Positions 1 to 11,597 of a DNA stretch of 11,597 bases are shown piece by piece. Made by a program: the position numbers and the translations under genes. The notes below the pieces were generated by a model. That model was not told the DNA's origin. It did no database searches and was given only the letters and a program-made list of their open reading frames with translations. Position 1 is the first letter of the stretch. Each line of letters begins with the position of its first letter. Source of the stretch: a virus (lineage: Duplodnaviria; Heunggongvirae; Uroviricota; Caudoviricetes); IMG/VR virus record IMGVR_UViG_638341087_000009, positions 1 through 11,597 of that record, one strand, 5' to 3'.

Positions 1-478
1 ACAGAGAATCCACCCATAACACTGTTTTTGGTTTTAACTGTTCCGCGTGCGCTGAGCCGCATTCACCGCATCACAAAATTCACTTTAAAAAGGGCGGCAG
101 AGCAGCCACGGAGTAAAACTGATACCGCCAAACGTCACCAGAAAATTGATAACAGAGGGCGTTGCAGCGGGGTTGTCACTTAAGCGTATGGTCAACCTGA
201 CAACCCGGTGTCCTCAACGGGGAAGGAATAACCCCGCCATACTTACCGCCGCGCCATTTCGCGGAGTGCCACAACCGGAAGCGCACGGTCGACGAAAATT
301 TAACGACAGGCTATCTATGAACCAGCTACCTCGCCGTGCGCTTTCGCGTTATGGTCTGACTTTTCAGGGAAATATCCTTTCAGTAAACTGTCAGTGCCGG
401 ATGCTCACCCGTGTCCGGCGCACGTACTCCACCTCACCCGTGGAGAACTCCTTAATCACCAACCCTCAGGAGGGTGAA

Positions 479-754
479 ATGTCGACTGAAAATGATGAAA
501 TCATTAACTCCCTGATACGCCAAATTAATAATTTTGATAAAGCATTGCAGCATGCTGCGGCGCGTAGTGATATAACTCTTTTAGCAATTTCATTTCTTGC
601 ATCTGTTATGGATAAAAATGAAGTCGTACGACAGAGTCTTGTTGATTATATCGACTCGCTTCAACCCGGCACTTTCAATCATGAGAGCTTCAATCATGAG
701 AAAGAGCATGTTAAGTCTGTAATTAATTCTCTTATTTTGAATCAAAAGAATTAA
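479..754 (+). CDS. Hypothetical small protein (91 aa), AT-rich insert (moron-like) in the early-left region
   Basis: ATG at 479 preceded by AGGAGGG (466-472, 6-nt spacing). Visibly lower GC than flanks. In-frame 15-bp tandem duplication (674-686 / 689-701, encoding FNHES/FNHEK). The upstream part of the 146..754 track ORF is Arg/Pro-rich, GC-rich and has no SD, so the start was moved to 479. No family recognised. Confidence 0.5.
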   Translation: MSTENDEIINSLIRQINNFDKALQHAAARSDITLLAISFLASVMDKNEVVRQSLVDYIDSLQPGTFNHESFNHEKEHVKSVINSLILNQKN

Positions 755-1052
755 TGCTTTTTGTTGCAAAGTAATTTTCAAGGGGTTCTATTCGAATCCC
801 TTTCTTTTTCATTAACAAGCCAAACCCCTTATCAATGATGTCCATTAGATCCAGGAAGTATTTTTCATGTAAATCCTGGTTATCAGAGAGCTGCTTCTCT
901 TCGTACAGACCGATAAAGGCACGACGCACGTTACCGGATATAGTATCGATGGTTTCTTTTTCTACGGTACTCAGGTCAAGAGTCGCCAGTTGGGAACGAA
1001 CTATATTCGCTGCCATTTCCTGGAATTGCATTGGTAAATCTTTAAATTCCAT
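732..1052 (-). CDS. Hypothetical protein (106 aa), last gene of the leftward early operon
   Basis: ORF with GAGG 6 nt upstream of ATG (complement of 1050-1052). Its 3' end overlaps the 479..754 gene convergently by 23 nt. No family recognised. Confidence 0.5.
   Translation of the reverse strand: MEFKDLPMQFQEMAANIVRSQLATLDLSTVEKETIDTISGNVRRAFIGLYEEKQLSDNQDLHEKYFLDLMDIIDKGFGLLMKKKGIRIEPLENYFATKSINSFDSK
780..809 (+). terminator. Candidate intrinsic terminator downstream of the 479..754 gene
   Basis: Hairpin 782-788 / 794-800 (GGGGTTC / GAATCCC, one G-U pair, 5-nt loop) followed by TTTCTTTTT (801-809). It lies inside the 3' end of the convergent 732..1052 ORF. Confidence 0.35.
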
Positions 1053-1074
1053 TATTAGCCTCGTTGGTTAGCTA

Positions 1075-1293
1075 TTAACGCGGGTATGTAATCATTCTGG
1101 CAATGCTTAATGCCGCTGCTTTTTCCAGATTGGTGATATCCTGCTCCAGAGCGGACAGATTTTCAGCCTGCTTAGCCCTGGCTTCATTAGCCCATTTCAG
1201 ATCCTGCGCTGCATTAATTTTCTGGCGCATCCACTCATAAAGTTCATCATCGGTATAGTCTGGCGAGATGATGACGGGTTCTCGTTTCTGCAT
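1075..1293 (-). CDS. Hypothetical small coiled-coil-like protein (72 aa)
   Basis: ORF with GAGGAA 5 nt upstream of ATG (complement of 1291-1293). Charged, helical-looking sequence; 22-nt gap to the next gene downstream. Confidence 0.55.
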   Translation of the reverse strand: MQKREPVIISPDYTDDELYEWMRQKINAAQDLKWANEARAKQAENLSALEQDITNLEKAAALSIARMITYPR

Positions 1294-1322
1294 ACTGATT
1301 CCTCGCGGTGCTGCTTCGCTTA

Positions 1323-1451
1323 TCAGCCGTTAGATTTTGCCGAGCTGGAAAGCGCCTGTTTAAACTCACTGAAGCTGAGAGCTTCTTCGCCTTCGGCAAG
1401 GCCTTCGAAGTATTCTTCGTAAGCCTTTTCCATGATTGTGTCGAAATCCAT
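1323..1451 (-). CDS. Small acidic protein (42 aa), not in the supplied ORF track
   Basis: Hand translation of the minus strand gives MDFDTIMEKAYEEYFEGLAEGEEALSFSEFKQALSSSAKSNG. AGGTGA lies 6 nt upstream; the start sits 1 nt after the stop of the upstream 80-aa gene. The two listed ORFs covering this interval (1247..1456 -, 1308..1505 +) look like frame shadows. Confidence 0.45.
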   Translation of the reverse strand: MDFDTIMEKAYEEYFEGLAEGEEALSFSEFKQALSSSAKSNG

Positions 1452-1452
1452 A

Positions 1453-1695
1453 TCACTCACCTGAGTTTCTTTCCAGCCAGCGACGGGCACCATTTTCGGT
1501 TTTAAACGTTTTGCTTTTGGTATACGTCATCGCGGTGAATGTGCCGTCCTGGTTGGGAAACACGCCGTACACCAGAGATTCATTGTTGCCAAGATCGATA
1601 GTATCCATGCTGACCTCATTTCCCCTTAACGCCGGGGTAGCGGAACTAAAAAACTGCTGCGCTGTTATATAAAGTGTTCCCGCCGTCATGTTCAT
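1453..1695 (-). CDS. Hypothetical protein (80 aa), first gene of the leftward early operon
   Basis: ORF with GAGGCG 4 nt upstream of ATG; sits about 85 nt downstream of the pL-like promoter. Not Arg-rich, so not obviously N-like. An internal Met would give a 50-aa product. Confidence 0.5.
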   Translation of the reverse strand: MNMTAGTLYITAQQFFSSATPALRGNEVSMDTIDLGNNESLVYGVFPNQDGTFTAMTYTKSKTFKTENGARRWLERNSGE

Positions 1696-1787
1696 ACGCC
1701 TCGGGCTGGCTACTTAACCCCTGACCACTGCCGGGTAACTCGAGGTATTGCCCTGCGTTCTGTGGGGCGGGGTGGGTTGGTGAGCGC

Positions 1788-1817
1788 ATCATAAAACACA
1801 TAAAATGTGTTAGTCAA
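1788..1817 (-). promoter_or_regulatory. pL-like sigma70 promoter for the leftward early operon
   Basis: Minus strand reads TTGACT (complement of 1812-1817), 18-bp spacer, TATGAT (complement of 1788-1793). Read directly from the sequence. Confidence 0.5.
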
Positions 1818-1831
1818 CACAAAAAAAGTGT
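1795..1831. promoter_or_regulatory. Two operator-like palindromes (ACACA-N5-TGTGT type) inside the pL-like promoter
   Basis: Site A 1795-1811 AACACA-TAAAA-TGTGTT, a perfect 17-bp palindrome in the promoter spacer. Site B 1817-1831 ACACA-AAAAA-AGTGT, overlapping the -35. Centres are 21 bp apart (two helical turns). The same motif recurs at 2849-2865. Confidence 0.5.
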
Positions 1832-1840
1832 GCGCAAGAA

Positions 1841-1872
1841 TAAAAAAACTCCCATTCAAGAGGTGATGGGAG
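1841..1872 (-). terminator. Intrinsic terminator ending the repressor/toxin-antitoxin transcript
   Basis: Stem 1849-1855 CTCCCAT / 1866-1872 ATGGGAG, followed on the minus strand by a 7-nt U tract (plus-strand A run 1842-1848). Immediately downstream of the ParE-like stop. Confidence 0.6.
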
Positions 1873-1883
1873 GTGGTTGATTA

Positions 1884-2171
1884 TTAACCGTTACCAGGAT
1901 ATTGCTGACGAGCATGTATCACGCTTACAATTTCAATGCTTGAAGTCGCTACCCTGTATAGGATTATGTAGTTAGGGTGGGTCACAATTTCTCTCAATCC
2001 AGAAACCCGTTCGCTTGGCGGGTATAGATACGGATGCTCAGATAGGGGCAGCACCGATGTTTCAATGCGTATTTTTAGTCTGCGCGCTGCCGGAGGGTTT
2101 TTTTTAGCAATGTAAGTTATAATCTGACTTAAATCATCGCGAGCAGACGGTAACCATAAAACGGGCAGCAT
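1884..2171 (-). CDS. parE: ParE/RelE-family type II toxin (95 aa)
   Basis: MLPVLWLPSARDDLSQIITYIAKKNPPAARR...YIILYRVATSSIEIVSVIHARQ fits the ParE pattern (L.W...A..DL..I..YIA...P.AA ... Y.I.YRV......I..V.HARQ). The start overlaps the upstream antitoxin stop (TAATG). The longer track ORF (136 aa) has an implausible Arg/Lys-rich N-terminal extension. Confidence 0.85.
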   Translation of the reverse strand: MLPVLWLPSARDDLSQIITYIAKKNPPAARRLKIRIETSVLPLSEHPYLYPPSERVSGLREIVTHPNYIILYRVATSSIEIVSVIHARQQYPGNG

Positions 2172-2362
2172 TACACGCTCCCGTTTTCCATGGCAATTTG
2201 ATTGATGATTTTTTCCATTTTTGCCATTACTTCGTCGTGCGGTATTGCTGGTCGTGGATCTGCAAGGCTTGCTGCAACCTTGGCGCGCAACCATTCGTTG
2301 TAACTGTTTTCTTGCTCGATAGTTTCAAATTCTGAAACTATTGGCGAAAGAACTGTGCTCAT
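2171..2362 (-). CDS. Cognate antitoxin (63 aa), ParD-like by context
   Basis: MSTVLSPIVSEFETIEQENSYNEWLRAKVAASLADPRPAIPHDEVMAKMEKIINQIAMENGSV. GAGAGG lies 7 nt upstream of the ATG; it is translationally coupled to parE. Assignment as antitoxin is strong; the exact family is less certain. Confidence 0.65.
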   Translation of the reverse strand: MSTVLSPIVSEFETIEQENSYNEWLRAKVAASLADPRPAIPHDEVMAKMEKIINQIAMENGSV

Positions 2363-2390
2363 AGTATGCCTCTCTGTCGTATGGTTGTAA

Positions 2391-2789
2391 TTATGCTCGA
2401 CGTCCTTTTTGGGCGGCGAGCCATCTTGCAACTGTGCGATCCATTGATTCTTTTTTGTCTTTCATGTCTTTAAGCATTTGTTCTTGCTCCTCTTCTGGGA
2501 AAGCCCCAAATGTTTGAAGCAAATCTCTCTGGCGCGGTCCTATTTTCATTGTATCAGGTACTACAACCTGTTCATCCTCGCTCGGAGGAAGCATGAACCA
2601 AAAAATAGGCCGAGCAGTTATTTGTGAAAGTCGATCTAAATTGTCAGGATTTGGACTAACCAAGCCTGCAGACCATCGCTGCACTGTTTGTTGCGACACT
2701 CCAACTAATTTCCCAAGCTCCGCCTGACTCCAGCCTGTTTCAGACAAGAGTTTCTTTATTCTATATGCAGTAATCTCGAGTGTTTTCAT
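2391..2789 (-). CDS. racR: Prophage repressor, RacR-like (XRE-family HTH), 132 aa from the proposed start
   Basis: HTH motif ...GWSQAELGKLVGVSQQTVQRWSAG... near the N-terminus. Start chosen at MKTLEIT (complement of 2787-2789); a TAGAAT -10 lies about 7 nt upstream, suggesting a near-leaderless mRNA like lambda cI from pRM. The alternative upstream start (2879) has no SD and would run through the operator region. Confidence 0.75.
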   Translation of the reverse strand: MKTLEITAYRIKKLLSETGWSQAELGKLVGVSQQTVQRWSAGLVSPNPDNLDRLSQITARPIFWFMLPPSEDEQVVVPDTMKIGPRQRDLLQTFGAFPEEEQEQMLKDMKDKKESMDRTVARWLAAQKGRRA

Positions 2790-2796
2790 AGTAACA

Positions 2797-2869
2797 ATTC
2801 TACTCAAAAAACGAGTAATGCGCGACACACGAAAATCGGGTTTACATATACACATTTTTTGTGTAATCT
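2797..2869. promoter_or_regulatory. Immunity switch region: divergent promoters and operator palindromes
   Basis: Leftward -10 TAGAAT (complement of 2797-2802) with a poor -35. Rightward TTTACA (2841-2846) with a -10-like TGTAAT/TAATCT (2862-2869). Palindrome TACACA-TTTTT-TGTGTA at 2849-2865 has the same half-sites as the pL operators. A second, different palindrome TACTC-N7-GAGTA sits at 2801-2817. Confidence 0.5.
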
Positions 2870-2895
2870 CCAGTCGCATGATGGAGGTACAAATA

Positions 2896-3168
2896 ATGAA
2901 TGATCATGTTAAGAAAAGGGTCGCGGGAAAATTTTCACAACGAGAACTGGCTATGTTAATGAGCACGAAACAACAAAGCGTATCTCGTTGGTTCAACTCT
3001 AAGTTCCCTGCATCAAGGGTGCTTCACTTGTGTCAATTGATGCAGTGGGAGGTTACTCCACACGAACTCCGACCAGACATTTACCCTAACCCAACCGACG
3101 GTTTACCCGTTGGATGTAAGGCTAACACATCAAATGCACCGGAGTTGATTCATGAAAATCAAGCATGA
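2896..3168 (+). CDS. ydaS: YdaS-like Cro/HTH protein (90 aa)
   Basis: GGAGG (2883-2887) 8 nt before ATG 2896. HTH-like ...FSQRELAMLMSTKQQSVSRW.... Divergent from the repressor, as in the Rac racR-ydaS-ydaT arrangement. The track ORF from 2818 is an upstream extension through the operator region. Confidence 0.7.
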   Translation: MNDHVKKRVAGKFSQRELAMLMSTKQQSVSRWFNSKFPASRVLHLCQLMQWEVTPHELRPDIYPNPTDGLPVGCKANTSNAPELIHENQA

Positions 3169-3577
3169 ACACATCCGCATGGCGATGAATGCCTGGGCGC
3201 ATCCGGACGGCGAGAAAGTACCGGCTGCGAAAATTACCAAAGCGTATTTCGAACTGGGTATGACGTTCCCGGAACTGTATGACGACAGCCATCCGGAAGC
3301 CCTGGCTCGCAATACCCAGAAAATTTTCCGCTGGGTAGAGAAAGACACTCCTGATGCGGTTAAAAAAATTCAGGCGTTGTTACCAGCTATCGAAAAAGCA
3401 ATGCCACCTCTGCTGGTGGCCCGAATGCGCAGCCATAGCTCAGCCTATTTTCGGGAACTGGTGGAGACGCGGGAACGACTGGTGAGAGACGCTGATGATT
3501 TTGTCGCAGTGGCGATCGCTGGTTTCAACCAGATGAATCGTGGTGGCCCTGCAGGAAATATTGTGGCTGTGCATTGA
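3152..3577 (+). CDS. ydaT: YdaT-like protein (141 aa)
   Basis: ATG 3152 with GGAG 7 nt upstream; overlaps the ydaS 3' end by 17 nt. Sequence MKIKHEHIRMAMNAWAHPDGEKVPAAKITKAYFELGMTF... and the synteny recall Rac prophage YdaT. Confidence 0.7.
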   Translation: MKIKHEHIRMAMNAWAHPDGEKVPAAKITKAYFELGMTFPELYDDSHPEALARNTQKIFRWVEKDTPDAVKKIQALLPAIEKAMPPLLVARMRSHSSAYFRELVETRERLVRDADDFVAVAIAGFNQMNRGGPAGNIVAVH

Positions 3578-3648
3578 CTCGCAATATTCATACCGGATCA
3601 CTTCCGGCAATTTGTGAGTAAAAAGATTCGGTATCAGAAGAGGTGAGT

Positions 3649-4686
3649 ATGGCTAACGCCTGGCTCAGATTATGGCATGACATGCCAAATGATCCTAAGT
3701 GGCGAACAATTTCCAGGGTGTCAGGACAGCCAATCGCAACAGTGATGGCTGTGTATATCCACCTTCTGGTGAGCGCGTCACGAAATGTCACGACATGTCA
3801 CGGCGTGTCACTACGTGGTCACATTGATGTCACGACGGAAGATTTAGCAAGTGCGCTTGATGTGACGGAAGACGTAATTGATTCAATTTTGCATGCAATG
3901 CAGGGGCGGGTTCTGGATGGTGACCTTATTTCCGGATGGGAAAAACGTCAGGTGCTGAAAGAGGACAATGGTAACGTTTCGCAAACGGCAAAATCCCCGG
4001 CAGAGCGCAAGAGAGCGCAGCGGGAGCGCGAAAAGCTGCGGAAATATGATGCTGATTGTCACGATGAGTCACGACGTGTCACGCATCTGTCACGACAAGT
4101 CACGACAGATAAAGATACAGATACAGAATTAAACCCCACACATAACGCGCGCATGCGCGAGAGTGCTCCAACCGGTGAGTCGAATGGTGCGTCGTTGCAG
4201 ACAGCCGAACCTGAATACCTGGACGGCCTGAGCGAACCGATCGGGAAATTTTCGATGACCACTGTCTGGCAGCCGTCGCCGGATTTTCGACAACGGGCAG
4301 CAGTGTGGGGTATGGCTCTGCCTGAGCCGGAATTTACACCTGCTGAGCTTGCCGCATTCCGGGATTACTGGATGGCGGAGGGGAAGGTTTTCACGCAGGT
4401 TCAGTGGGAGCAGAAATTTGCCCGCCACGTGCAGCACGTCAGGGCACAGGTAAAACCAGTCAGCAAGGGGGTAAGCCATGCAGCATCAGGTGGCACGGCA
4501 TCACGGGCAGTTCAGGAAATCCGGGCAGCACGCGAACAGTGGGAACGTGACAACGGATTTATCAGCAACGGAAACGGCCTGGAAGCTGTGGGAGCTTATG
4601 GGGGAGGTGTATTCGAACCGCTGGACACAGAAGAACGGGGCCGCACCTTCGAAGCTCTGGATTGCCCAGATTGGCGCGATGACTGA
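3649..4686 (+). CDS. Replication initiator (lambda O-like role); 3' boundary uncertain
   Basis: ATG 3649 with GAGGTG 4-9 nt upstream. The N-terminus MANAWLRLWHDMPNDPKWR looks like a phage replisome-organiser N-domain. The gene contains two iteron clusters in its low-complexity linker, as the lambda origin lies inside O. The last 209 nt overlap the P-like gene in another frame. Confidence 0.65.
   Translation: MANAWLRLWHDMPNDPKWRTISRVSGQPIATVMAVYIHLLVSASRNVTTCHGVSLRGHIDVTTEDLASALDVTEDVIDSILHAMQGRVLDGDLISGWEKRQVLKEDNGNVSQTAKSPAERKRAQREREKLRKYDADCHDESRRVTHLSRQVTTDKDTDTELNPTHNARMRESAPTGESNGASLQTAEPEYLDGLSEPIGKFSMTTVWQPSPDFRQRAAVWGMALPEPEFTPAELAAFRDYWMAEGKVFTQVQWEQKFARHVQHVRAQVKPVSKGVSHAASGGTASRAVQEIRAAREQWERDNGFISNGNGLEAVGAYGGGVFEPLDTEERGRTFEALDCPDWRDD
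3777..3834. repeat. Iteron cluster 1: six GTCAC(G) repeats at 10-11 bp spacing
   Basis: GTCACG at 3777, 3787, 3797 and 3829; GTCACT at 3807; GTCAC at 3818. Units resemble tGTCACGnnn. Confidence 0.75.
4058..4135. repeat. Iteron cluster 2 (five GTCACG repeats) with an adjacent AT-rich patch: candidate origin
   Basis: GTCACG at 4058, 4068, 4078, 4089 and 4099 (10-11 bp phasing), followed by AGATAAAGATACAGATACAGAATTAAACC (4107-4135). Confidence 0.7.
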
Positions 4687-5140
4687 ACAGCAAATCCGGC
4701 TGGTCTGCCGTCAGTGCATGGACCGCTGCCGGGCGGGTGAAACGTGGCCCCCGGACCTTGCTGAGTTTGTTGCACTGATTTCGGAGAGTGGGGCAAATCC
4801 ATTTGGTCTTACGGTGGATGCAGTGATGGAAGAGTACCGGCGCTGGCGCAATGAATCCTGGCGATACGACGGGAGTGATAAATACCCGTGGCCACAGCCT
4901 GTGCTGTACCACATCTGCCTCGAAATGCGTACCAGAGGGATTGAGCGCCAGATGACGCAGGGTGAGTTAAAACGACTTGCGGAACGGCAACTGACGAAAT
5001 GGGCAAAGCATGTTGGTAACGGGATGAGTGTTCCGCCAGTGCGACGACAACTGGAAGGGGCGAAACACCCGCAAGGGCCAACGCCAATTGAACGGCTGAA
5101 ACAGGAATACGAACGCCGGAAGGCAGCTGGTTTTATTTGA
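4478..5140 (+). CDS. Lambda P-like replication protein (DnaB helicase loader), 220 aa
   Basis: Segment ...DLAEFVALISE...MEEYRRWRNESWRYDGSDKYPWPQPVLYHICLEMRTRG...ELKRLAERQL... matches from memory lambda P (...FVAWCRE...YEYCRKRGLYPDAESYPWKSNAHYWLVTNLYQNMRANALTDAELRRKAADEL...). AAGGGGG (4465-4471) lies 6 nt before ATG 4478. Alternative in-frame starts are ATG 4598 and ATG 4679, the latter overlapping the O-like stop as ATGACTGA. Confidence 0.7.
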   Translation: MQHQVARHHGQFRKSGQHANSGNVTTDLSATETAWKLWELMGEVYSNRWTQKNGAAPSKLWIAQIGAMTEQQIRLVCRQCMDRCRAGETWPPDLAEFVALISESGANPFGLTVDAVMEEYRRWRNESWRYDGSDKYPWPQPVLYHICLEMRTRGIERQMTQGELKRLAERQLTKWAKHVGNGMSVPPVRRQLEGAKHPQGPTPIERLKQEYERRKAAGFI

Positions 5141-5173
5141 ATCTGAGAAACGATTTTGTCGGAGGAAATATTA

Positions 5174-5848
5174 ATGGAAACCGTATCTGACGCACTGAAA
5201 GCACTGAAAAAAGCCTCTTCACATGTGGTGGCAGCTCGCCTTGGAATCAGTCGTGAAGAGGCTGTCAACGAGCTGTGGGAACTCAAAAGAAAAGGCGTCG
5301 TTGATAAAACTGGTCACACCTGGTTTCTGGCTGGCGAAGGTGAATCCCGGGTAACCGAAGAGCGGCCAGTAAAATCTGAAGCACAGGATATGCTGACCGG
5401 GGAGGTCGAACAAAAAGTTACCGCAGACATGATGATTGAGTTTATCGGTCAGGATGGGGCTAAAACGTGTGAGGAACTGGCGGGTAAGTTCGGTGTCAGT
5501 ACTCGCAAGGTTGCTTCCACGCTGGCGGTGGTAACCGCAACGGGGCGGCTGGCACGCGTTAATCAGAACGGTAAATTTCGTTACTGCATGCCGGGCGATA
5601 ATTTACCAGCAGAGCCGAAAGCCGCGCTGGTAACGGAAAGTGATGGTAAGGCCTTTCCTCAGCCAGCAGGTGCTGCGTTACCAGTCCGGGAAGCCGCAAC
5701 ACAGGAAGAAATTAAAACAGAAACTGTGGCGGACATTGTGCAGCCGTTGCCATCGTTTACCGAAACGCAAGCAGATGAGCTGATTTTTCCGTCCCTTCGC
5801 AGGGCAAACCTGGCGCTGCGCAGGGCGAAAAGTGATGTTCAGAAGTGA
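5174..5848 (+). CDS. Hypothetical protein (224 aa) with two winged-helix-like repeats
   Basis: GGAGGA (5161-5166) 7 nt before ATG 5174. Two similar modules of about 50 aa (ALKALKKASSHVVAARLGISREEAVNELWELKRKGVVDKTG and MIEFIGQDGAKTCEELAGKFGVSTRKVASTLAVVTATGRLARVNQNG). Function unknown. Confidence 0.6.
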   Translation: METVSDALKALKKASSHVVAARLGISREEAVNELWELKRKGVVDKTGHTWFLAGEGESRVTEERPVKSEAQDMLTGEVEQKVTADMMIEFIGQDGAKTCEELAGKFGVSTRKVASTLAVVTATGRLARVNQNGKFRYCMPGDNLPAEPKAALVTESDGKAFPQPAGAALPVREAATQEEIKTETVADIVQPLPSFTETQADELIFPSLRRANLALRRAKSDVQK

Positions 5849-5959
5849 GAGCGAGTCTGCGCCGCGCTGCGGGAGCTGAACAAGCACCGGGATATTGTTC
5901 GACAGATTACTGATTCTTCCCGCCGTGTTGTATCGGAAAAGTGATTGCCGGAGGCGCTT

Positions 5960-6382
5960 ATGGCAAAAGTATTTACACAAGAAGAGCGGGAAAAAATTAA
6001 AGGGCAGGTTGTTGAACTAGTACGCCGGAGTGGGCGCGAGACGTTACGGCAACTGGAAGCCAAGACAGGTGCGACAAGATATCTGATGAGCGTTCTCGCC
6101 AGAGAGCTGGTTGCCAGTGGCGATGTATACAACTCTGGTTACGGGTTATTCCCGTCTGAACAGGCTCGTAAGGACTGGCAAAATGCCCGCAAAAAACTAT
6201 CTAGGGCAAAGGTGAAGAAACCATCTGTGGTTGATCCGGATCTTATCTGGTCATTACCAGACGGAGAAATACGCCGCTACGACAGGCGTCTGAACATAAT
6301 CTGTAGCGAGTGCCGGAAGAGCGAAGCTATGCAGCGTGTACTGGCTTTCTATCAGGGTAATTTTCAGAAGGTGCTGTTGTGA
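5960..6382 (+). CDS. Hypothetical protein (140 aa), nin-like region
   Basis: GGAGG (5950-5954) 5 nt before ATG 5960. Charged N-terminus with a C-terminal CSEC motif. No family recognised. Confidence 0.55.
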   Translation: MAKVFTQEEREKIKGQVVELVRRSGRETLRQLEAKTGATRYLMSVLARELVASGDVYNSGYGLFPSEQARKDWQNARKKLSRAKVKKPSVVDPDLIWSLPDGEIRRYDRRLNIICSECRKSEAMQRVLAFYQGNFQKVLL

Positions 6383-6487
6383 GCCAAATTAACAATCGGA
6401 ACTTCGTGAAGAGAAAGCATAATCCAAATCTGAATAATTAAGTTCAGCACTGTAAATAAAATTTAATCCTTAACTGGAGGTATATTT

Positions 6488-6700
6488 ATGTTAAATACAC
6501 AGAAAGCCATTAATGCGGAAAAATATAACGAGTGGGCAAGAAAATTCTCTGAGCAGATTTTTAAAATTACTGGCGATGAGAATGTGGCAAAAAATGAATT
6601 AGAACCGTGGACACCTGAAGGAAACGCACCAAATTATTGCTGGTGGGAGGTTGATCCGGTTGATGCTGCAAATGAAGCCATGAGTTACCACAACGATTAA
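6488..6700 (+). CDS. Hypothetical small protein (70 aa), AT-rich
   Basis: GGAGG (6476-6480) 7 nt before the ATG, in an AT-rich island. No family recognised. Confidence 0.55.
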   Translation: MLNTQKAINAEKYNEWARKFSEQIFKITGDENVAKNELEPWTPEGNAPNYCWWEVDPVDAANEAMSYHND

Positions 6701-6704
6701 TGTC

Positions 6705-6735
6705 GGGAGGCCGCCCGAAAGGGCGGTAAGAAATG
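6705..6735 (+). promoter_or_regulatory. SD-hairpin-start codon arrangement upstream of the membrane-protein gene
   Basis: GGGAGG (6705-6710), then hairpin CCGCCC-GAAA-GGGCGG (6711-6726, GAAA tetraloop), then ATG 6733. The hairpin sits between the SD and the start codon. Confidence 0.35.
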
Positions 6736-6951
6736 ACTACATTATTCAGAAAAGAATATCCGCAAAAAAGTAGGGCGACAGAATTTTTGTTTCTCATTCT
6801 GTTTATCGTATTGATGATACCGATATCCCCTCTAATTTTTGTCTGGGCAATCGGGAAAATAATTGAGCCAGTTACTGAATTGTATACCGACGTTGTATGG
6901 GCGTCGTTCAACACACTGCACAATAAAATTAATCCGTATAAGGAAAACTGA
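6733..6951 (+). CDS. Small predicted membrane protein (72 aa)
   Basis: Hydrophobic stretch EFLFLILFIVLMIPISPLIFVWAIG consistent with a transmembrane helix. Its stop overlaps the next start as TGATATG. Confidence 0.5.
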   Translation: MTTLFRKEYPQKSRATEFLFLILFIVLMIPISPLIFVWAIGKIIEPVTELYTDVVWASFNTLHNKINPYKEN

Positions 6952-6952
6952 T

Positions 6953-7216
6953 ATGGCAACTTTGACAAAAAAAGAACGGGCATGGTTAAACGAATTACAG
7001 GAAGTTCTTGATCGCTGTCCATCACCGAAAAAAATTGGCTTTTACACCATTGGCGATAAAAGCATTTACCTGTATGACCTACGCCGCATGGATGAAATCA
7101 TGGAGGCTCTTGATAATCGTTCGTCGATGGATTGGTGTGTTGCTGTTCATGATATGAATGCAGGGTTTGATGAAAAGATTTTGTTCCCCTCATCAGTTGA
7201 AAGCACTGCGGGTTAA
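6953..7216 (+). CDS. Hypothetical small protein (87 aa)
   Basis: ATG 6953 two nt after the upstream stop, with AAGGAAAA upstream. The track ORF from 6863 is an upstream extension overlapping the preceding gene. Confidence 0.5.
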   Translation: MATLTKKERAWLNELQEVLDRCPSPKKIGFYTIGDKSIYLYDLRRMDEIMEALDNRSSMDWCVAVHDMNAGFDEKILFPSSVESTAG

Positions 7217-7226
7217 GGAGTAACAC

Positions 7227-8096
7227 ATGACCACTATTACCAAAGAACGTATTGAATTGTTCATTAAAAATCCGGTTGAAAACGGGCTTACCCGTGGTGA
7301 ACAAATGGAACTGGCACGGATTGCGCTGGCATCGCTGGAAGCAGAGCCGGTGGCAAAGATTATAGCTCATTACCCATTAGGGGTTGACGTAGGCAAACAA
7401 AAATTCGTACAGGCCATTAGAGAGCTTCCTGACTTTGGCGGATATCTATTTGCCGCCCCTCCAGCGCCGATAGTGCCGGAAGAAATGTATTGGCAGGATG
7501 CGCCAGTTGAAGGCAGCAGCAAAGCGGCTGCATACGCTACAGGCTGGAACGATTGCCGCGAAGCCATGCTTCAGTCCGGAAACTTTCGGGAAAATAAAGA
7601 TTCGTCAACCAATAATTTTCGGAAAATCCCGGAAGCGTCAACCAGCTCTCCGGTAACTCCGGCTCTTCTGCCTGGTGGTTTCACCATTGAGGAGGCGAAG
7701 GAATTACATGAAGACCTGGTACGCAGCCACATAAGCAAGGCCTTAAGTGGCGAAAAGATGAAAAAGAAAGATCGCGATGCTGATTTGCGCTGGATTCATG
7801 GCGTTATAGTTCAGGCAGCGTGGTTTGTAAAAGCATCACTGGAGCAGAATGCACTATCGGGCAACTATCCGGTAACTCCGGATAGTTGGATAAGCTGTAG
7901 TGAGCGAATGCCGGATACCAAAACAGCCGTTCTTGTTGCCGTGGAGTTTGACAGGAAAGGTGACTGGCGAATGAAATGGGCGACTTACATCCCGGGGCAT
8001 CCTGACGCTAATGATGGGTGGATAATTCCTGGTGCGTCGTGGAAACCGTCACACTGGATGCCGCTACCAGAACCGCCGCAGGAGGTGCGCCAATGA
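7227..8096 (+). CDS. DUF551 domain-containing phage protein (289 aa)
   Basis: AAGGAG (7215-7220) 6 nt before the ATG. C-terminus ...WISCSERMPDTKTAVLVAV...GWIIPGASWKPSHWMPLPEPP matches the DUF551 signature recalled from memory (WxxxxExxP ... HWMPLPEPP). The roughly 220-aa N-terminal region is unassigned. Confidence 0.7.
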   Translation: MTTITKERIELFIKNPVENGLTRGEQMELARIALASLEAEPVAKIIAHYPLGVDVGKQKFVQAIRELPDFGGYLFAAPPAPIVPEEMYWQDAPVEGSSKAAAYATGWNDCREAMLQSGNFRENKDSSTNNFRKIPEASTSSPVTPALLPGGFTIEEAKELHEDLVRSHISKALSGEKMKKKDRDADLRWIHGVIVQAAWFVKASLEQNALSGNYPVTPDSWISCSERMPDTKTAVLVAVEFDRKGDWRMKWATYIPGHPDANDGWIIPGASWKPSHWMPLPEPPQEVRQ

Positions 8097-8176
8097 ACTG
8101 GCCTGAAGCATTTGCAATTACAGGCGTTGCTATGGCTATCGCTTTTTTAGTATATGTTATTTGTCGGTGGGGGTAA
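8093..8176 (+). CDS. Unannotated tiny hydrophobic ORF (27 aa): MNWPEAFAITGVAMAIAFLVYVICRWG
   Basis: ATG overlaps the upstream stop (ATGA); GGAGGTG (8081-8087) lies 5 nt upstream. One predicted transmembrane segment. Too short for the ORF track. Confidence 0.35.
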   Translation: MNWPEAFAITGVAMAIAFLVYVICRWG

Positions 8177-8211
8177 AAACGTTCGCCGGGATTAACACCA
8201 AAGGAGGGAAT

Positions 8212-8316
8212 ATGTCGGATGATATCTCACTGGCAATGGAAGGTGCGCTGGCTGTTATTGCTGTTGTGGGCGTTTACTGCCTGGTTGTGTTTTTGATGGA
8301 TCGACTAGGGAACTAA
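8212..8316 (+). CDS. Unannotated small membrane peptide (34 aa): MSDDISLAMEGALAVIAVVGVYCLVVFLMDRLGN
   Basis: Strong SD AAGGAGGG (8201-8208) 3-4 nt before the ATG. One transmembrane segment with a charged C-terminus. Confidence 0.45.
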   Translation: MSDDISLAMEGALAVIAVVGVYCLVVFLMDRLGN

Positions 8317-8324
8317 ATTCATTA

Positions 8325-8346
8325 CGATATGGGAATTCCCATATCG
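8325..8346. repeat. 22-bp perfect palindrome CGATATGGGAATTCCCATATCG
   Basis: Exact inverted repeat with no spacer, centred on GAATTC, between the small-peptide gene and the hok promoter. Confidence 0.8.
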
Positions 8347-8358
8347 GGTAAAAACGGT

Positions 8359-8386
8359 TTGCGGTAAAGCGAGAGTTAAGTAGAAT
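8359..8386 (+). promoter_or_regulatory. Candidate promoter for the hok/mok mRNA
   Basis: TTGCGG (8359-8364), 16-bp spacer, TAGAAT (8381-8386). Predicted start near 8393 gives an mRNA of about 420 nt to the terminator at 8812, similar to known hok mRNAs. Confidence 0.4.
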
Positions 8387-8440
8387 TGCTGCGGGCGCTT
8401 GAGGCTGTCTGCCTCGGGCATGCCACCGTAAGGCAGACAG

Positions 8441-8512
8441 AGAAAAGCCCCAGTTAACATTACGCGTCCGGCAAGACGCTTAACATTAATCTGAGGCCAT
8501 ATCTATGCTCTA
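8441..8512 (-). ncRNA. Candidate Sok-like antisense RNA (about 70 nt)
   Basis: Weak minus-strand promoter (TTGCCT, complement of 8543-8548; 17-bp spacer; TAACCT, complement of 8520-8525). Transcript would be antisense to the mok-frame SD and ATG (8493-8507). It would end in a minus-strand hairpin (arms 8491-8497 / 8447-8453, inner stem 8464-8468 / 8475-8479) followed by UUUUCU. Structure-based inference only. Confidence 0.3.
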
Positions 8513-8561
8513 CACACGTAGGTTAGCCTCTTACGTGCCGAAAGGCAAGGAGAAGCAGGCT

Positions 8562-8717
8562 ATGAAGCAGCAAAAGGCGATGCTAATCGCCCTGATCGTC
8601 ATCTGTTTAACCGTCATAGTGACGGCACTGGTAACGAGGAAAGACCTCTGCGAGGTACGAATCCGAACCGGCCAGACGGAGGTCGCTGTCTTCACAGCTT
8701 ACGAACCTGAGGAGTAA
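8562..8717 (+). CDS. hokD: Hok/Gef-family type I toxin (51 aa), closest to HokD/RelF; in-frame Mok-like extension from ATG 8505
   Basis: MKQQKAMLIALIVICLTVIVTALVTRKDLCEVRIRTGQTEVAVFTAYEPEE is the Hok family signature (transmembrane helix plus ...TRK.LCE..IR.G..EVAAF.AYE). AAGGAG (8547-8552) lies 9 nt before ATG 8562. The upstream in-frame ATG 8505 with its own GAGG gives a 70-aa form, as in chromosomal mok genes. Confidence 0.85.
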   Translation: MKQQKAMLIALIVICLTVIVTALVTRKDLCEVRIRTGQTEVAVFTAYEPEE

Positions 8718-8785
8718 GAGACCCGGCGGGGGAGAAATCCCTCGCCACCGCTGATGTGTCAGGCATCCTCAACGCACCCGCACTT

Positions 8786-8812
8786 AACCCGCTTCGGCGG
8801 GTTTTGTTTTTT
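8786..8812 (+). terminator. Intrinsic terminator of the hok transcript
   Basis: Stem AACCCGC / GCGGGTT with TTCG loop (8786-8803), followed by TTGTTTTTT. Confidence 0.65.
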
Positions 8813-8884
8813 CTGGTCGTTCTGGTTTACAATCCATCCGTCAGCCTGAACAACTGGCACCTGCTGCGCCAGCAGAGAAAACAG

Positions 8885-9163
8885 ATGGCGCACGATACCA
8901 AATTTTACAATTCGGATAACTCTGCCGCCCCTGCCAGCAGGCACGGGCGGCGTTCCCGCACTTTCAAATCTGACTGGTTCCAGCATCCCCCATGCACTGA
9001 AGAACAGGCCGAGTGGCTAATTCAGTGCTACCGCAGACACGGATACGAGATTAAGAAAGCCCTCAGCCTCGATTATCGTCACTGGATAATCTCCGTCAGG
9101 CTTCCTTACTCCGAACGACCACCGCGTCCGTCCCGCACATTCCAGCAACGCATCTGGAGGTAA
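8885..9163 (+). CDS. Hypothetical protein (92 aa), Rem-like by position
   Basis: ATG 8885; the track ORF from 8756 would run through the terminator. The order hok, small protein, DUF968 protein, Q matches my recollection of Qin prophage hokD-rem-ydfU-quuQ. Weak SD. Confidence 0.5.
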   Translation: MAHDTKFYNSDNSAAPASRHGRRSRTFKSDWFQHPPCTEEQAEWLIQCYRRHGYEIKKALSLDYRHWIISVRLPYSERPPRPSRTFQQRIWR

Positions 9164-9164
9164 C

Positions 9165-10211
9165 GTGCGGGTATTACTTCGACCTGTTCTGGTACCGGAA
9201 CTCGGGCTGGTGATCGTTAAGCCGGGCCGTGAATCCATGCCGGTATTCCACAATACCCGGGTACTGGTGGAGCCGGAACCGAAAAGCATGCGTAATCTGC
9301 CGTCCGGGGTCGTTCCTGCCGTTCGCCAGCCGCTGGCGGAGGATAAATCATTACTGCCATTTTTCAGCGACGAACGAGTGATTCGTGCTGCTGGTGGCGC
9401 TGGCGCATTGTCTGACTGGCTGTTGCGCCATATTAAATCCTGCCAGTGGCCACACGGCGATTATCATCACAGCGAAACCGTCATTCACCGTTATGGTACC
9501 GGCGCAATGGTGTTGTGCTGGCACTGCGACAACCAGCTGCGCGACCAGACCTCCGAATCACTGGAACATCTGGCTCAACAAAACCTGGCAGCCTGGATGA
9601 TTGACGTCATACGCCATGCAATGAATGGCTCGCAGGAGCGTGAATTATCTCTGGCTGAATTATCCTGGTGGGCGGTCCGCAATCAGGTGGCGGACGCGCT
9701 ACCGGAAGCGGTATTACGTCGTTCGCTGGGGTTGCGTGCGGAAAAAATCCGCTCAATGTACCGTGAAAGCGACATCGTACCGGGAGAGCAGACCGCCACC
9801 AGCATACTGAAGCAGCGCACAAAAAATCTTGCGCCGCTGCCTCACGCTCACCAGCAAAAACCGCCACAGGAAAAGACGGTGGTCAGCATTGCCGTTGATC
9901 CTGAGTCTCCGGAATCTTTCATGAAACGACCTAAACGTCGCCGCTGGGTTAACGAGAAATACACGCACTGGGTGAAGACACAGCCGTGTGCGTGTTGTGG
10001 TAAGCCTGCTGACGATCCGCATCACCTGATTGGTCATGGTCAGGGGGGAATGGGGACAAAATCTCACGATATTTTCACGCTACCGCTGTGTCGGGAGCAT
10101 CACAACGAGCTTCATGCGGATCCGCTGGCGTTCGAAGAAAAGCATGGTTCTCAGGTTGATTTAATTTTTCGTTTTCTTGATCACGCCTTTGCAACTGGCG
10201 TGCTTGGGTAA
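9165..10211 (+). CDS. ydfU: YdfU-like DUF968 protein (348 aa) with a Cys/His metal-binding-like C-terminus
   Basis: GTG start 4 nt after GGAGG (9156-9160). C-terminal motif ...QPCACCGKPADDPHHLIGHGQGGMGTKSHDIFTLPLCREHHNELH.... Length is close to K-12 YdfU (about 349 aa, recalled from memory). Confidence 0.7.
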   Translation: MRVLLRPVLVPELGLVIVKPGRESMPVFHNTRVLVEPEPKSMRNLPSGVVPAVRQPLAEDKSLLPFFSDERVIRAAGGAGALSDWLLRHIKSCQWPHGDYHHSETVIHRYGTGAMVLCWHCDNQLRDQTSESLEHLAQQNLAAWMIDVIRHAMNGSQERELSLAELSWWAVRNQVADALPEAVLRRSLGLRAEKIRSMYRESDIVPGEQTATSILKQRTKNLAPLPHAHQQKPPQEKTVVSIAVDPESPESFMKRPKRRRWVNEKYTHWVKTQPCACCGKPADDPHHLIGHGQGGMGTKSHDIFTLPLCREHHNELHADPLAFEEKHGSQVDLIFRFLDHAFATGVLG

Positions 10212-10223
10212 AAGAGGTGACTG

Positions 10224-10583
10224 ATGCTCATAGATTTGGTTTTACCTTACCCGCCGACGGTGAACACTTACTGGCGACGCCGTGGCAGCACATATTTTGT
10301 ATCAAAAGCCGGGGAGCGTTATCGCCGGGCTGTGGCGCTTATTGTTCGCCAGCAGCGACTGAAATTAAGCCTGTCCGGACGGCTGGCAATAAAAATTATT
10401 GCAGAGCCACCGGATAAGCGTCGTCGTGACCTGGACAATATTCTGAAAGCACCGCTGGATGCGCTGACGCATGCGGGAGTGCTCATTGATGACGAGCAGT
10501 TTGATGAAATCAATATTGTACGTGGTCAGCCAGTATCTGGTGGACGGCTGGGTGTGAAGATTTACAAAATTGAGAGTGAGTGA
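10224..10583 (+). CDS. rusA: RusA-family Holliday junction resolvase (119 aa)
   Basis: ...LPYPPTVNTYWRRRG...PPDKRRRDLDNILKAPLDALTHAGVLIDDEQ...GGRLGVKIY... matches RusA motifs recalled from memory (PPSNNRYY..., PDRRRRDLDN..K...DALT.AG...DD, GGRL). GAGGTG lies 4 nt before the ATG. Confidence 0.85.
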   Translation: MLIDLVLPYPPTVNTYWRRRGSTYFVSKAGERYRRAVALIVRQQRLKLSLSGRLAIKIIAEPPDKRRRDLDNILKAPLDALTHAGVLIDDEQFDEINIVRGQPVSGGRLGVKIYKIESE

Positions 10584-10591
10584 GCGTAAAT

Positions 10592-11122
10592 ATGATATAT
10601 CCGGAAATTACAGGCAAAAGCGGCGAACATTTACGCCTGAACACGCTGGAAGCAGTCTGGATCCAGGGGAAATTACGGATGTGGGGGCGGTGGTCGTATA
10701 TCGGTGGGGGTAAATCCGGAAATATGTTTAACCGGTTACTGGTTTCGAAAAAGCTGACGAAAACAGCAGTTAATGAGGTTTTACGCAGCATGAAGAAATC
10801 CGGGCTGGAAAAACCGGAACTTGAGGCATTTTTTCGGGATATGACCAGAGGGAAGCAGAAGAGCTGGTTGTCACATTGTACAGACACAGAGGCGTTGATT
10901 ATTGATCGCGTTATCAGTGAGGTGCTTGGGGAATATCCCGGGCTAATCAATATTCTCCGGCAAAGGTACGAAGGACGGGGAATGAGTAAGAGAAAAATGG
11001 CAGAATGTTTAAATCGTACTCACCCGGAATGGTGTTTCAGCACATGTGAGAAACGTATTGCAGGTTGGTTAGCCGTGGCTGAACACATGCTTTATGTACC
11101 TATGCACGATTCATTTCGATAA
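10592..11122 (+). CDS. Q-like late-gene antiterminator (176 aa); assignment mainly positional
   Basis: Immediately follows rusA (start 8 nt after its stop) and precedes a short terminator-bounded region, as Q does in lambdoid phages. Sequence similarity to Q families is not verified. Confidence 0.5.
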   Translation: MIYPEITGKSGEHLRLNTLEAVWIQGKLRMWGRWSYIGGGKSGNMFNRLLVSKKLTKTAVNEVLRSMKKSGLEKPELEAFFRDMTRGKQKSWLSHCTDTEALIIDRVISEVLGEYPGLINILRQRYEGRGMSKRKMAECLNRTHPEWCFSTCEKRIAGWLAVAEHMLYVPMHDSFR

Positions 11123-11129
11123 AAAAAGC

Positions 11130-11158
11130 TTGCTTTTTTACGCAGAAACAGCTTGAAT
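11130..11158 (+). promoter_or_regulatory. Candidate pR'-like late promoter
   Basis: TTGCTT (11130-11135), 17-bp spacer, TTGAAT (11153-11158), 8 nt after the Q-like stop. Weak match; placement is by analogy. Confidence 0.2.
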
Positions 11159-11216
11159 TCCTGTAAGCTTCGCAAAGCTGTATCGCGAGGCGAAATGCAA
11201 GTTTTTTCGCACAAGG

Positions 11217-11241
11217 AAGCCACCGGAAGGTGGTTTTTTTT
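11217..11241 (+). terminator. Intrinsic terminator (tR'-like)
   Basis: Stem GCCACC / GGTGG(T) with GGAA loop (11219-11233), followed by an 8-nt T run (11234-11241). Confidence 0.65.
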
Positions 11242-11364
11242 GTGTCCGTAATATACAGCAGCGCAATAAATTCGCTGGTGGTTATTAATACCGTTCTTTC
11301 AGCTTGCTGGCTTTTTCGACAAGAGTTATTGGTGTGTCACGTTAACCGAAAAAGGGAAAAAGAC

Positions 11365-11562
11365 ATGCTGAAACAGCAGGATATGACCGAAACCGCCAGA
11401 GTGGTGTTTAATGAATTAAGCGTTACCGAACCGGCGACAGTCGGGGAGGTTGCGCAGAATACTTACCTTTCACGCGAACGCTGCCAGTTAATACTGACCC
11501 AGCTTGTTATGGCGGGTCTGGCAGACTATCAGTGCGGTTGTTACAGACGCCTTCAGTCCTGA
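11365..11562 (+). CDS. Hypothetical small protein (65 aa), first gene after the tR'-like terminator
   Basis: ATG 11365 with AAGGG 8 nt upstream. The track ORF from 11230 would begin inside the terminator. Not hydrophobic, so not a holin. Confidence 0.45.
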   Translation: MLKQQDMTETARVVFNELSVTEPATVGEVAQNTYLSRERCQLILTQLVMAGLADYQCGCYRRLQS

Positions 11563-11575
11563 AGGCTTTTTATTT
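11549..11575 (+). terminator. Candidate intrinsic terminator overlapping the stop codon of the 65-aa gene
   Basis: Stem GCCTTCA / TGAAGGC with GTCC loop (11549-11566), followed by TTTTTATTT. Confidence 0.5.
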
Positions 11576-11597
11576 GTGGTGAATGGGCGGCTGGTGG

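Follow-up and report, generated by a model that had tools for sequence, protein, structure and literature searches.

In bacteriophage T4, genes 38 and 25 are translated from split initiation regions, in which a hairpin in the mRNA reduces the distance between the Shine-Dalgarno (SD) sequence and the start codon from 22 to 5 nt for gene 38 and from 27 to 11 nt for gene 25 (PMC3014915). The evidence came from mutations, reporter fusions and dimethyl sulfate (DMS) probing, and mutations that destabilize either hairpin reduce initiation (PMC3014915). Here we describe an arrangement of similar geometry in an 11,597-nt stretch of viral DNA (positions 1 to 11,597 of IMG/VR record IMGVR_UViG_638341087_000009, hereafter the window), where a G+C-rich hairpin lies between the SD and the start codon of the second of three small genes in an A+T-rich island. 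The 24-nt core of this arrangement, (A/G)GGAGG followed by the hairpin and TA, is a portable translation-initiation cassette, and this is the main new result of the analysis. Two further bodies of work bear on the locus. The modular theory of phage evolution recognizes conserved boundary or 'linker' sequences at the junctions of lambdoid modules. In Shiga toxin (Stx) phages, the family DUF4014, to which the product of the second gene belongs, is placed in the 'variable set of downstream genes' that the exo-xis region contains (PMC8614690).

The initiation region of gene 2

The preliminary description of the window, made from the letters of the sequence, pointed out a perfect CCGCCC-GAAA-GGGCGG inverted repeat between a GGGAGG and the ATG at 6733, and this is indeed what the sequence contains. 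The 16-mer folds with a free energy of -12.4 kcal/mol, or -15.5 kcal/mol when the stem is extended by the pair G6710.U6727, and the probability of being unpaired, P(unpaired), is 0.0 for both stem arms. The 71-nt context of the hairpin gives z = -3.7 relative to dinucleotide shuffles, and the chance expectation for a 16-mer this near the hairpin pattern is 0.1 per window. GGGAGG forms the strongest anti-SD duplex within 6690-6735 (-10.3 kcal/mol) and has a P(unpaired) of 0.65. Between its end at 6710 and the A of AUG 6733 there are 22 nt, which is beyond the functional range (above ~13 nt). With the 16-nt hairpin looped out, the remaining spacing is 6 nt here and 6-11 nt over 126 copies of the cassette. 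The start codon itself is fixed as ATG 6733 because an in-frame TAA stands two codons upstream. The sole other anti-SD match near this ATG, AGGGCGGU (-7.8 kcal/mol), is the 3' arm of the hairpin with a P(unpaired) of 0.0, and since this arm is fully paired, gene 2 has no other accessible SD. The spacer UAAGAA and the AUG are largely open in the fold ensemble.

How, then, would the 30S subunit find the start codon of gene 2? By analogy with T4 genes 38 and 25, we lean towards the hypothesis that the hairpin acts as a split ribosome-binding site. The GNRA-capped hairpin would loop out 16 of the 22 nt between the sole strong accessible SD and the AUG, the 30S subunit would then see an effective spacing of ~6 nt, and the hairpin would in this way enhance initiation. 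It had been suggested in the preliminary description that the hairpin could either bring the SD closer to the start codon or sequester the site. The first fits better, as the fully paired stem includes neither the SD nor the AUG and an alternative accessible SD is lacking; sequestration is less favored because the T4-like geometry and two natural comparisons agree. The first comparison is with hairpin-free DUF4014 alleles, in which a canonical SD, AAGGAG or GGGAG, stands at a distance of 5-6 nt from the start. The second is locus L128, in which the upstream SD and the hairpin have decayed together and the former 3' arm now reads GAGAGG, 9 nt from the ATG.

Intrinsic terminators likewise consist of a short loop on a G+C-rich stem. 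Unlike a terminator, however, this hairpin has a start codon within 6 nt and no U-tract on either strand: GGGCGG is followed by TAAGAAATGACT, and on the reverse strand the stem is followed by CCTCCCGACA. A promoter and terminator consensus scan of 5900-7700 made no call in the leader or at the hairpin, with counts at shuffle level.

The three genes had been described as translationally coupled, and strict coupling holds at most for gene 2 and gene 3, whose junction TGAtATG leaves a 1-nt gap with the SD AAGGA 8 nt upstream, as in a coupled pair. Gene 1 and gene 2 are separated by 32 nt with no direct abutment of stop and start. The stop codon of gene 1 overlaps another ATG (TAATG), which opens a mini-ORF (open reading frame) that runs across the hairpin and its SD to a stop 3 nt short of ATG 6733; in the context of the window this mini-ORF could relay terminating ribosomes. 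Its product, MSGGRPKGR, was considered as a conserved leader peptide and rejected; the ATG of the mini-ORF is not present in leader-only copies of the cassette, and it is probably incidental. Gene 3 is followed after 10 nt, which contain AAGGAG, by gene 4.

A portable cassette and its leader

The cassette comprises (A/G)GGAGG, the 16-nt hairpin CCGCCCGAAAGGGCGG, TA, 4-9 more nucleotides and a start codon. Among 80 IMG/VR loci fetched with the DUF4014 protein, (A/G)GGAGG-CCGCCCGAAAGGGCGG-TAAnnATG precedes DUF4014 behind two different upstream sequences, and other DUF4014 alleles of ~93-94% protein identity have an ordinary AAAGGAGAGTGAT(G/A)TG site with no hairpin. Among 80 loci fetched with gene 1, the cassette that follows gene 1 precedes at least four different downstream genes. 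The (A/G)GGAGG motif is invariant in nearly all cassettes. In an exact-match scan for the cassette (more than 120 viral contigs), a start codon comes 6-11 nt after the stem in 125 of 126 copies. The genes behind it belong to at least five unrelated families: DUF4014; MRKFKIIIETG (~60 aa); Ead/Ea22-like proteins (MTELTKEQL, MEITKERL); MQEIKENIRQQL (158-196 aa); and MRKFRKNKMADF. About 24 nt are common to all contexts, and mosaic breakpoints fall at the edges of these 24 nt. The SD-hairpin-ATG arrangement first noticed at the membrane-protein gene is thus present there and is not specific to it, being common to many unrelated genes.

The distribution of the cassette is wide in genomes and narrow in taxonomy. 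A 40-nt probe detects the leader with cassette (described below) in 2,636 of 5,426 complete E. coli genomes, at 4,799 places and up to 8 per genome, and no annotated feature lies under the probe among the matches listed. Some prophages carry two cassettes 1,064 nt apart, and plasmid records of E. albertii and E. fergusonii contain the leader with cassette as well. When 185,579 species genomes were searched with a degenerate pattern that left the three inner stem pairs free, the scan returned 42 matches, of which 2 are genuine and both have the canonical sequence; it did not find the cassette outside the Escherichia/Shigella prophage pool. An E. coli-type leader and cassette was also seen in Actinobacillus phage vB_Apl-pPE4 (H115, 92.5% identity), and an exact match in a 3-kb contig (L315) of a 'Collinsella sp.' metagenome-assembled genome; both occurrences probably stem from contamination or mis-binning and do not reflect the real hosts. 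Rfam 15, searched at gathering and at permissive thresholds (E up to 5), gave no family match in the island or in the intact leader, and in the literature we found no description of the element.

The cassette is usually the end of a conserved, unannotated non-coding leader of ~105 nt. At loci free of gene 1, the leader reads in order: a palindrome CTGAAT-N6-ATTCAG, an A+T-rich stretch, AATCCTTAAC, hairpin 1 (GGAGGGATTTCTGCACCCTC), AGAACATC, AGGAGG and hairpin 2, the last two being the cassette. In other prophages it follows at least five unrelated upstream genes. The possibility that these upstream genes read through the hairpin was rejected, as no long ORF enters the cassette in leader-only contexts. 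Positions 6430-6480 of the window are homologous to the 5' part of the leader, and gene 1, which the leader-only loci lack, sits exactly between the two GGAGG motifs of the leader: AATCCTTAACtGGAGG/tatatttATG...gene 1...TAATGTCG/GGAGG-hairpin. Therefore, the first GGAGG serves as the SD of gene 1. We propose that gene 1 was inserted between the two GGAGG motifs of an ancestral leader, such that the first would have become its SD and the second, together with the hairpin, would have been left for DUF4014.

Other elements of the leader vary between loci. The inverted repeat is conserved as CTGAAT-AATTAA-ATTCAG in L257, L248 and L249, for example, is imperfect in the window (CTGAATAATTAAGTTCAG), and survives as CTGA...TCAG in another leader family that has diverged (ACTGAAGATTTAAATCAG); the repeat could bind a protein or form a weak RNA hairpin. 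In hairpin 1 (L248, L217 and L257, for example), an orphan SD-like GGAGGG pairs with CCCTC, and this pairing places an anti-SD-like CCCUC 9 nt from each of two SDs; in the window, gene 1 replaces hairpin 1. Locus L217 has a double change in hairpin 1, GGAGTG/CACTC, which gives a perfect 5-bp helix in a shifted register, and the common variant GGATGG breaks the helix.

Several observations weigh against a split ribosome-binding site or lend it limited support. Over 53 unique leaders examined with RNAalifold, the base pairs scarcely vary and show no compensatory double changes; true covariation is lacking, and the near-invariant stem occurs in a closely related prophage pool of Escherichia and Shigella. 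For this reason, structure and function of the cassette rest on thermodynamics and analogy. Some constraint on the cassette speaks in favor of the model: nucleotide diversity is 0.043 in a 22-nt core, mostly from one haplotype, versus 0.10 at four-fold sites of the linked gene. This excess of conservation is modest (the core is two- to six-fold less variable than four-fold sites), and recent spread or gene conversion could explain it. Independent stem substitutions number two, CCGCCT and CCGTCC, both of which preserve pairing as G.U, and of the two loop variants GGAA keeps the GNRA loop and TAAA breaks it; these are too few events to count as evidence. In other loci, a spacer variant TGGAGATAATAATG (TGGAGATAATA) has its own SD (GGAG) after the hairpin, so that the hairpin is not needed for SD delivery in those copies. 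The minimum free energy (MFE) fold of the window contains a weak outer helix, 6702-6705 with 6734-6737, which touches the AUG and may be an inhibitory structure, and which is missing from the centroid. Finally, some SD bases of leader-only copies can be engaged by UCC(U) of AAUCCUUAAC.

A decayed copy of the cassette was also observed at 1565-1610 of L327 (phage Rac from E. coli 442/2), with the stem arm CCGTCC (G.U pair) and the start ATG mutated to ATA. The same record annotates another ORF (HP1) that begins within the leader.

What else could the hairpin do? One hypothesis is that it is mainly an RNA stability or processing element that shields either the upstream cistron from 3' exonucleases or, once RNase E has cut within the AU-rich leader, the new 5' end of the cistron downstream, initiation at 6733 then proceeding via the A-rich spacer, protein S1 or coupling and not via the distant SD. 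In its favor are the very stable G+C stem, which in the window lies directly 3' of gene 1, the position of the leader-only hairpin just downstream of an AU-rich stretch, a possible RNase E target, and the spacer variant with its own SD. However, AGGAGG always stands before the hairpin and the start codon 6-11 nt after it, whatever the upstream gene, which is unexpected for a 3'-end protector; the leader-only hairpin is ~100 nt away from the upstream gene; and in L128 SD and hairpin degrade together. We consider it unlikely that stability or processing is the main role.

An alternative hypothesis is that the cassette is a junction 'linker' with no function at the RNA level, whose ~24 nt of identity promote homologous exchange or reflect recent spread, and whose SD-AUG distance is simply tolerated. 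A neutral linker would need neither a strong SD nor a perfect GNRA hairpin, nor a fixed short distance to the start in 125 of 126 copies, and the genes behind the cassette would have no usable SD unless the hairpin bridges the gap, whereas cassette-free alleles have canonical SDs. These features make the hypothesis improbable, even though the cassette lies exactly at mosaic breakpoints, can reach 8 copies in one genome and 2 in one prophage (~1 kb apart), and combines a narrow distribution with near-identical sequences and no covariation. The linker role and the split-initiation role are not mutually exclusive. In our favored reading, too, the 24-nt core at the junctions of unrelated modules marks mosaic breakpoints and may help to create them by short-homology recombination.

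A third hypothesis, to which we assign rather little weight, gives the hairpin a regulatory role in repressing or gating translation, either by occlusion of SD and AUG or through an RNA-binding protein that co-regulates the cassette genes, such as an N-like arginine-rich protein recognizing the GNRA-type loop. An identical hairpin before many unrelated genes would suit a common trans-acting factor, the MFE helix touches the AUG, and in leader-only copies UCC(U) can pair with the SD, while an anti-SD-like CCCUC is located between two SDs. The stem-loop GCCC-GAAA-GGGC presumably resembles lambda boxB (GCCCUGAAAAAGGGC), which is the sole support for likeness to a nut site. However, the stem contains neither SD nor AUG, both of which are mostly unpaired in the ensemble, and the outer helix is not in the centroid; the site lies deep in operons next to start codons and not after an early promoter, and no candidate binding protein was identified. 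The lambda nut site also differs in form: boxA plus boxB, with a pentaloop, just downstream of an early promoter in a phage with an N-type antiterminator, as opposed to a tetraloop deep in an operon before start codons. A preprint on the small RNA Pas was considered and set aside, since it concerns the late region and is not relevant to the island.

Genes, coding strand and prophage context

Features of the island and its upstream leader are collected in Table 1.

Table 1 Features of the island in window coordinates.
Feature	Position	Strand	Remarks
Non-coding leader part	6383-6487	+	AT-rich, GC 0.305; 105 nt long, directly after the DUF977 gene, which ends at 6382
Imperfect palindrome CTGAATAATTAAGTTCAG	6430-6447	+	leader part of window
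Conserved box AATCCTTAAC	6465-6474	+	leader part of window
First GGAGG	6476-6480	+	SD of gene 1, 7-nt spacer
Gene 1	6488-6700	+	70 aa, phrog_4659
Mini-ORF MSGGRPKGR	6700-6729	+	9 codons, read from sequence
Shine-Dalgarno GGGAGG	6705-6710	+	22 nt upstream of ATG 6733
Hairpin CCGCCC-GAAA-GGGCGG	6711-6726	+	6-bp G+C stem, GNRA tetraloop, extendable by G6710.U6727
A-rich spacer UAAGAA	6727-6732	+	between hairpin base and AUG; contains TAA 6727-6729
Gene 2	6733-6951	+	DUF4014 protein, 72 aa, Pfam PF13198, phrog_1832
Gene 3	6953-7216	+	87 aa, phrog_1714, soluble alpha/beta protein
Antisense ORF	6567-7025	-	152 aa, GTG start, no SD

The G+C content (GC) of the island (6383-7216) is 0.392 compared with 0.491 for the whole window, and it drops at 6383, as first described: the DUF977 gene upstream (5945-6382) has 0.498, genes 1, 2 and 3 have 0.394, 0.365 and 0.417, and the next gene (7227-8096) has 0.505. 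The three small plus-strand ORFs of the preliminary description likewise stand, and RefSeq annotates exactly these in prophages that are 100% identical, with the labels hypothetical, DUF4014 family and hypothetical. Another AT-rich patch, with a GC of 0.35-0.40, lies near the left end of the window at ~451-1050, with short minus-strand ORFs beside DicF; the island is therefore not the sole AT-rich patch of the window.

Homology and structure prediction, as proposed in that description, assigned families to the three proteins and predicted folds for the products of genes 1 and 3, and yielded no function. The product of gene 1 is acidic (net charge -7), its family is restricted to Escherichia/Shigella, and its AF2 model is helical (pLDDT 77) with no Foldseek match in the PDB (E above 1). 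The product of gene 2 is a full-length DUF4014 protein (PF13198, 91.8 bits versus a cut-off of 23.2, residues 1-72 on profile positions 1-72) and matches the PHROGs family of 933W L0067 and epsilon15 gp46. It has one predicted hydrophobic span at residues 18-43 (Kyte-Doolittle hydropathy over 19 residues, 2.96) between a basic N-terminus and an acidic C-terminal tail, which is consistent with a small single-pass membrane protein with its N-terminus inside. Functional labels for DUF4014 are limited to 'released from the phage upon host infection' and '(O-polysaccharide/sugar) acetyltransferase inhibitor', which are unverified and trace to epsilon15-type annotations. The product of gene 3 has an invariant C22-P23, belongs to a family that is widespread in Enterobacterales prophages, and is confidently predicted (pLDDT 91.5) to form a small alpha/beta domain. 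A PDB sequence profile search with it gave no match, and Foldseek against BFVD retrieved unnamed viral proteins only; gene 3 thus appears to encode a small domain that is widely conserved and folds confidently, yet lacks any known structural relative. Pfam, PHROGs and PADLOC assign no function to the island proteins, and none of the three matches a PADLOC defense hidden Markov model at E up to 0.1. On the exclusion or anti-defense role suggested earlier these results provide no evidence in either direction, as the PADLOC scan covers defense components only.

Which strand of the island is coding? The question arises from the 152-aa antisense ORF, which does span the island with no SD, as had been noted. 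Loci were fetched by protein homology, and 17-29 distinct alleles per gene were compared. In genes 1, 2 and 3, variation peaks at plus-strand codon position 3, and the ratio of non-synonymous to synonymous polymorphism (pN/pS) in the sense frame is 0.21, 0.24 and 0.18, respectively. All three plus-strand genes are under purifying selection and hence real genes. Read in the antisense frame, genes 1 and 3 give neutral pN/pS values of 0.84 and 0.87, respectively, and variation there peaks at antisense codon position 2. The antisense value of 0.39 over gene 2 is partly inherited from sense constraint because the third codon positions of both frames coincide. Antisense-frame stops occur in 4 of 29 DUF4014 alleles and sense-frame stops in none. 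Moreover, the ORF cannot exist in most relatives because the three modules that it crosses shuffle independently. The central part of the ORF matches phrog_20982, a PHROG family for the antisense frame of DUF4014, and this match shows only that a spurious antisense frame of DUF4014 was annotated and passed on in phage records. Several old Stx-phage records have two to three overlapping 'hypothetical proteins' at the antisense ORF region. The antisense ORF was rejected as a gene: that it is real and the plus-strand ORFs artefacts is next to inconceivable given its neutral pN/pS where the frames are separable, its GTG start, its stops in alleles and its unlinked modules, set against sense genes with pN/pS of ~0.2 and Pfam or PHROG families, although it is the longest ORF of the island and its frame is annotated in some phage records.

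By Pfam, Rfam and PHROGs, the gene order of the window upstream of the island is DicF RNA, a ParE-like gene, YdaS/YdaT-type immunity genes, a DnaT-domain initiator, a lambda-P-like protein, DUF1627 and DUF977, the last labeled 'Ren-like' in PHROGs. Downstream of the island, the same searches gave an Ead/Ea22-like plus DUF551 protein, hok/sok, DUF968, RusA and Q. This order from replication genes to Q shows that the window derives from a Rac/Stx-like lambdoid prophage of E. coli and that the island belongs to its rightward early operon, where it is preceded by the replication genes (with DUF1627 and DUF977) and followed by the Ead/DUF551-hok/sok-RusA-Q genes. The sole Rfam matches in the window are DicF RNA at 92-143 on the minus strand (75 bits) and sok antitoxin RNA at 8393-8567 on the plus strand (114 bits); a hok-family ORF lies at 8505-8717, and hok/sok together with DicF are typical features of Qin/Rac-type prophages. 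The gene at 7227-8096 encodes a fusion-like protein of 289 aa, Ead/Ea22-like at the N-terminus and DUF551 at the C-terminus. Its counterpart beside one of the 100%-identical O26:H11 islands (L001) is annotated as fragments and pseudogenes, and this gene is therefore variably intact among strains.

The 844-nt island query has 100% identity with prophages carried by E. coli O26:H11 and by related E. coli strains that produce Shiga toxin (STEC), and 401 of the 5,426 complete E. coli genomes carry at least 80% of it in one place. Against phage genomes, megablast retrieved no record covering 80% of the island; query positions 39-346 (gene 1 and the hairpin), 355-582 (DUF4014) and 567-844 (gene 3) match different phage sets, with breakpoints at ~6728/6737 and ~6949-6964, and the island genes have other partners in other phages. 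The suggestion that the island was acquired as one module is therefore not borne out by these breakpoints and differing partners: the three genes are separate, independently exchangeable accessory modules of the 'ea/exo-xis' type. In the pL operon of ArgO145, for example, the order is gene 1, cassette, a gene for 60 aa, another for 58 aa, an Ead/Ea22-like gene, the leader with cassette, DUF4014 and an HNH endonuclease gene. An HNH endonuclease gene directly follows DUF4014 repeatedly, in ArgO145 (L284, 2596-3181) and in the phage records g341c and HK225, which hints that homing-type endonucleases may help to move DUF4014 modules.

Significance and relation to known systems

If the hairpin bridges SD and AUG, split initiation regions extend from T4 genes 38 and 25 to temperate lambdoid prophages, and to our knowledge no earlier example would exist in which many unrelated genes draw on one and the same cassette. 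About half of the sequenced E. coli genomes carry it, among them Stx-phage lysogens of O157 and O26. In annotation, it can pin the true start codons of many small prophage genes that have no proximal SD, and it argues against the antisense ORFs that some pipelines call. It is also a testable example of how a short functional RNA element could double as a recombination junction driving phage mosaicism. A bolder and rather speculative extension, which we think has little chance of being right in full, is that leader and cassette form a dedicated module of Escherichia lambdoid prophages for the expression and capture of accessory genes. Such a module would act as a uniform socket for translation, and recombination in the 24-nt core or at the two GGAGG motifs would exchange the unrelated small genes plugged into it, gene 1 of the window being a case in point; the GNRA hairpin, leader hairpin 1 and the palindrome might be read by a common trans-acting factor, and the cassette genes of a cell, with up to 8 copies per genome, would constitute one post-transcriptional regulon.

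How does the locus compare with what has been described before? As in the exo-xis or 'ea' regions of lambda, P22 and the Stx phages, the island holds small, non-essential, early-transcribed and highly mosaic genes beside Ead/Ea22-like genes. Unlike those regions, it lies in the rightward early operon after the replication genes and not between exo and xis, and none of its three proteins matches the studied set orf60a/61/63/73/ea22. Gene 2 shares with 933W L0067 and epsilon15 gp46 the same 72-aa architecture and a neighborhood of Ead/Ea22-like and DUF551/EaA-like genes, whereas the DUF4014 genes of 933W and epsilon15, which lie between genes of these two types, stand in other operons and have no hairpin cassette.

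Lambdoid linker sequences are like the cassette in being short, conserved, non-coding stretches between unrelated modules at recombination breakpoints. The cassette differs from them in its defined RNA anatomy of SD, GNRA hairpin and start codon at a fixed distance, and because of this anatomy it probably has a translational role besides any role in recombination. The closest parallel is with T4 genes 38 and 25. In both cases the SD is too distant from the start codon (22 nt here), a stable hairpin lies wholly between SD and AUG, a functional 5-11 nt is left, and the mRNAs are polycistronic phage transcripts. The T4 hairpins are gene-specific and experimentally proven, whereas the cassette is known here from its sequence and, unlike them, is one identical element serving at least five unrelated gene families at the mosaic junctions of temperate lambdoid prophages.

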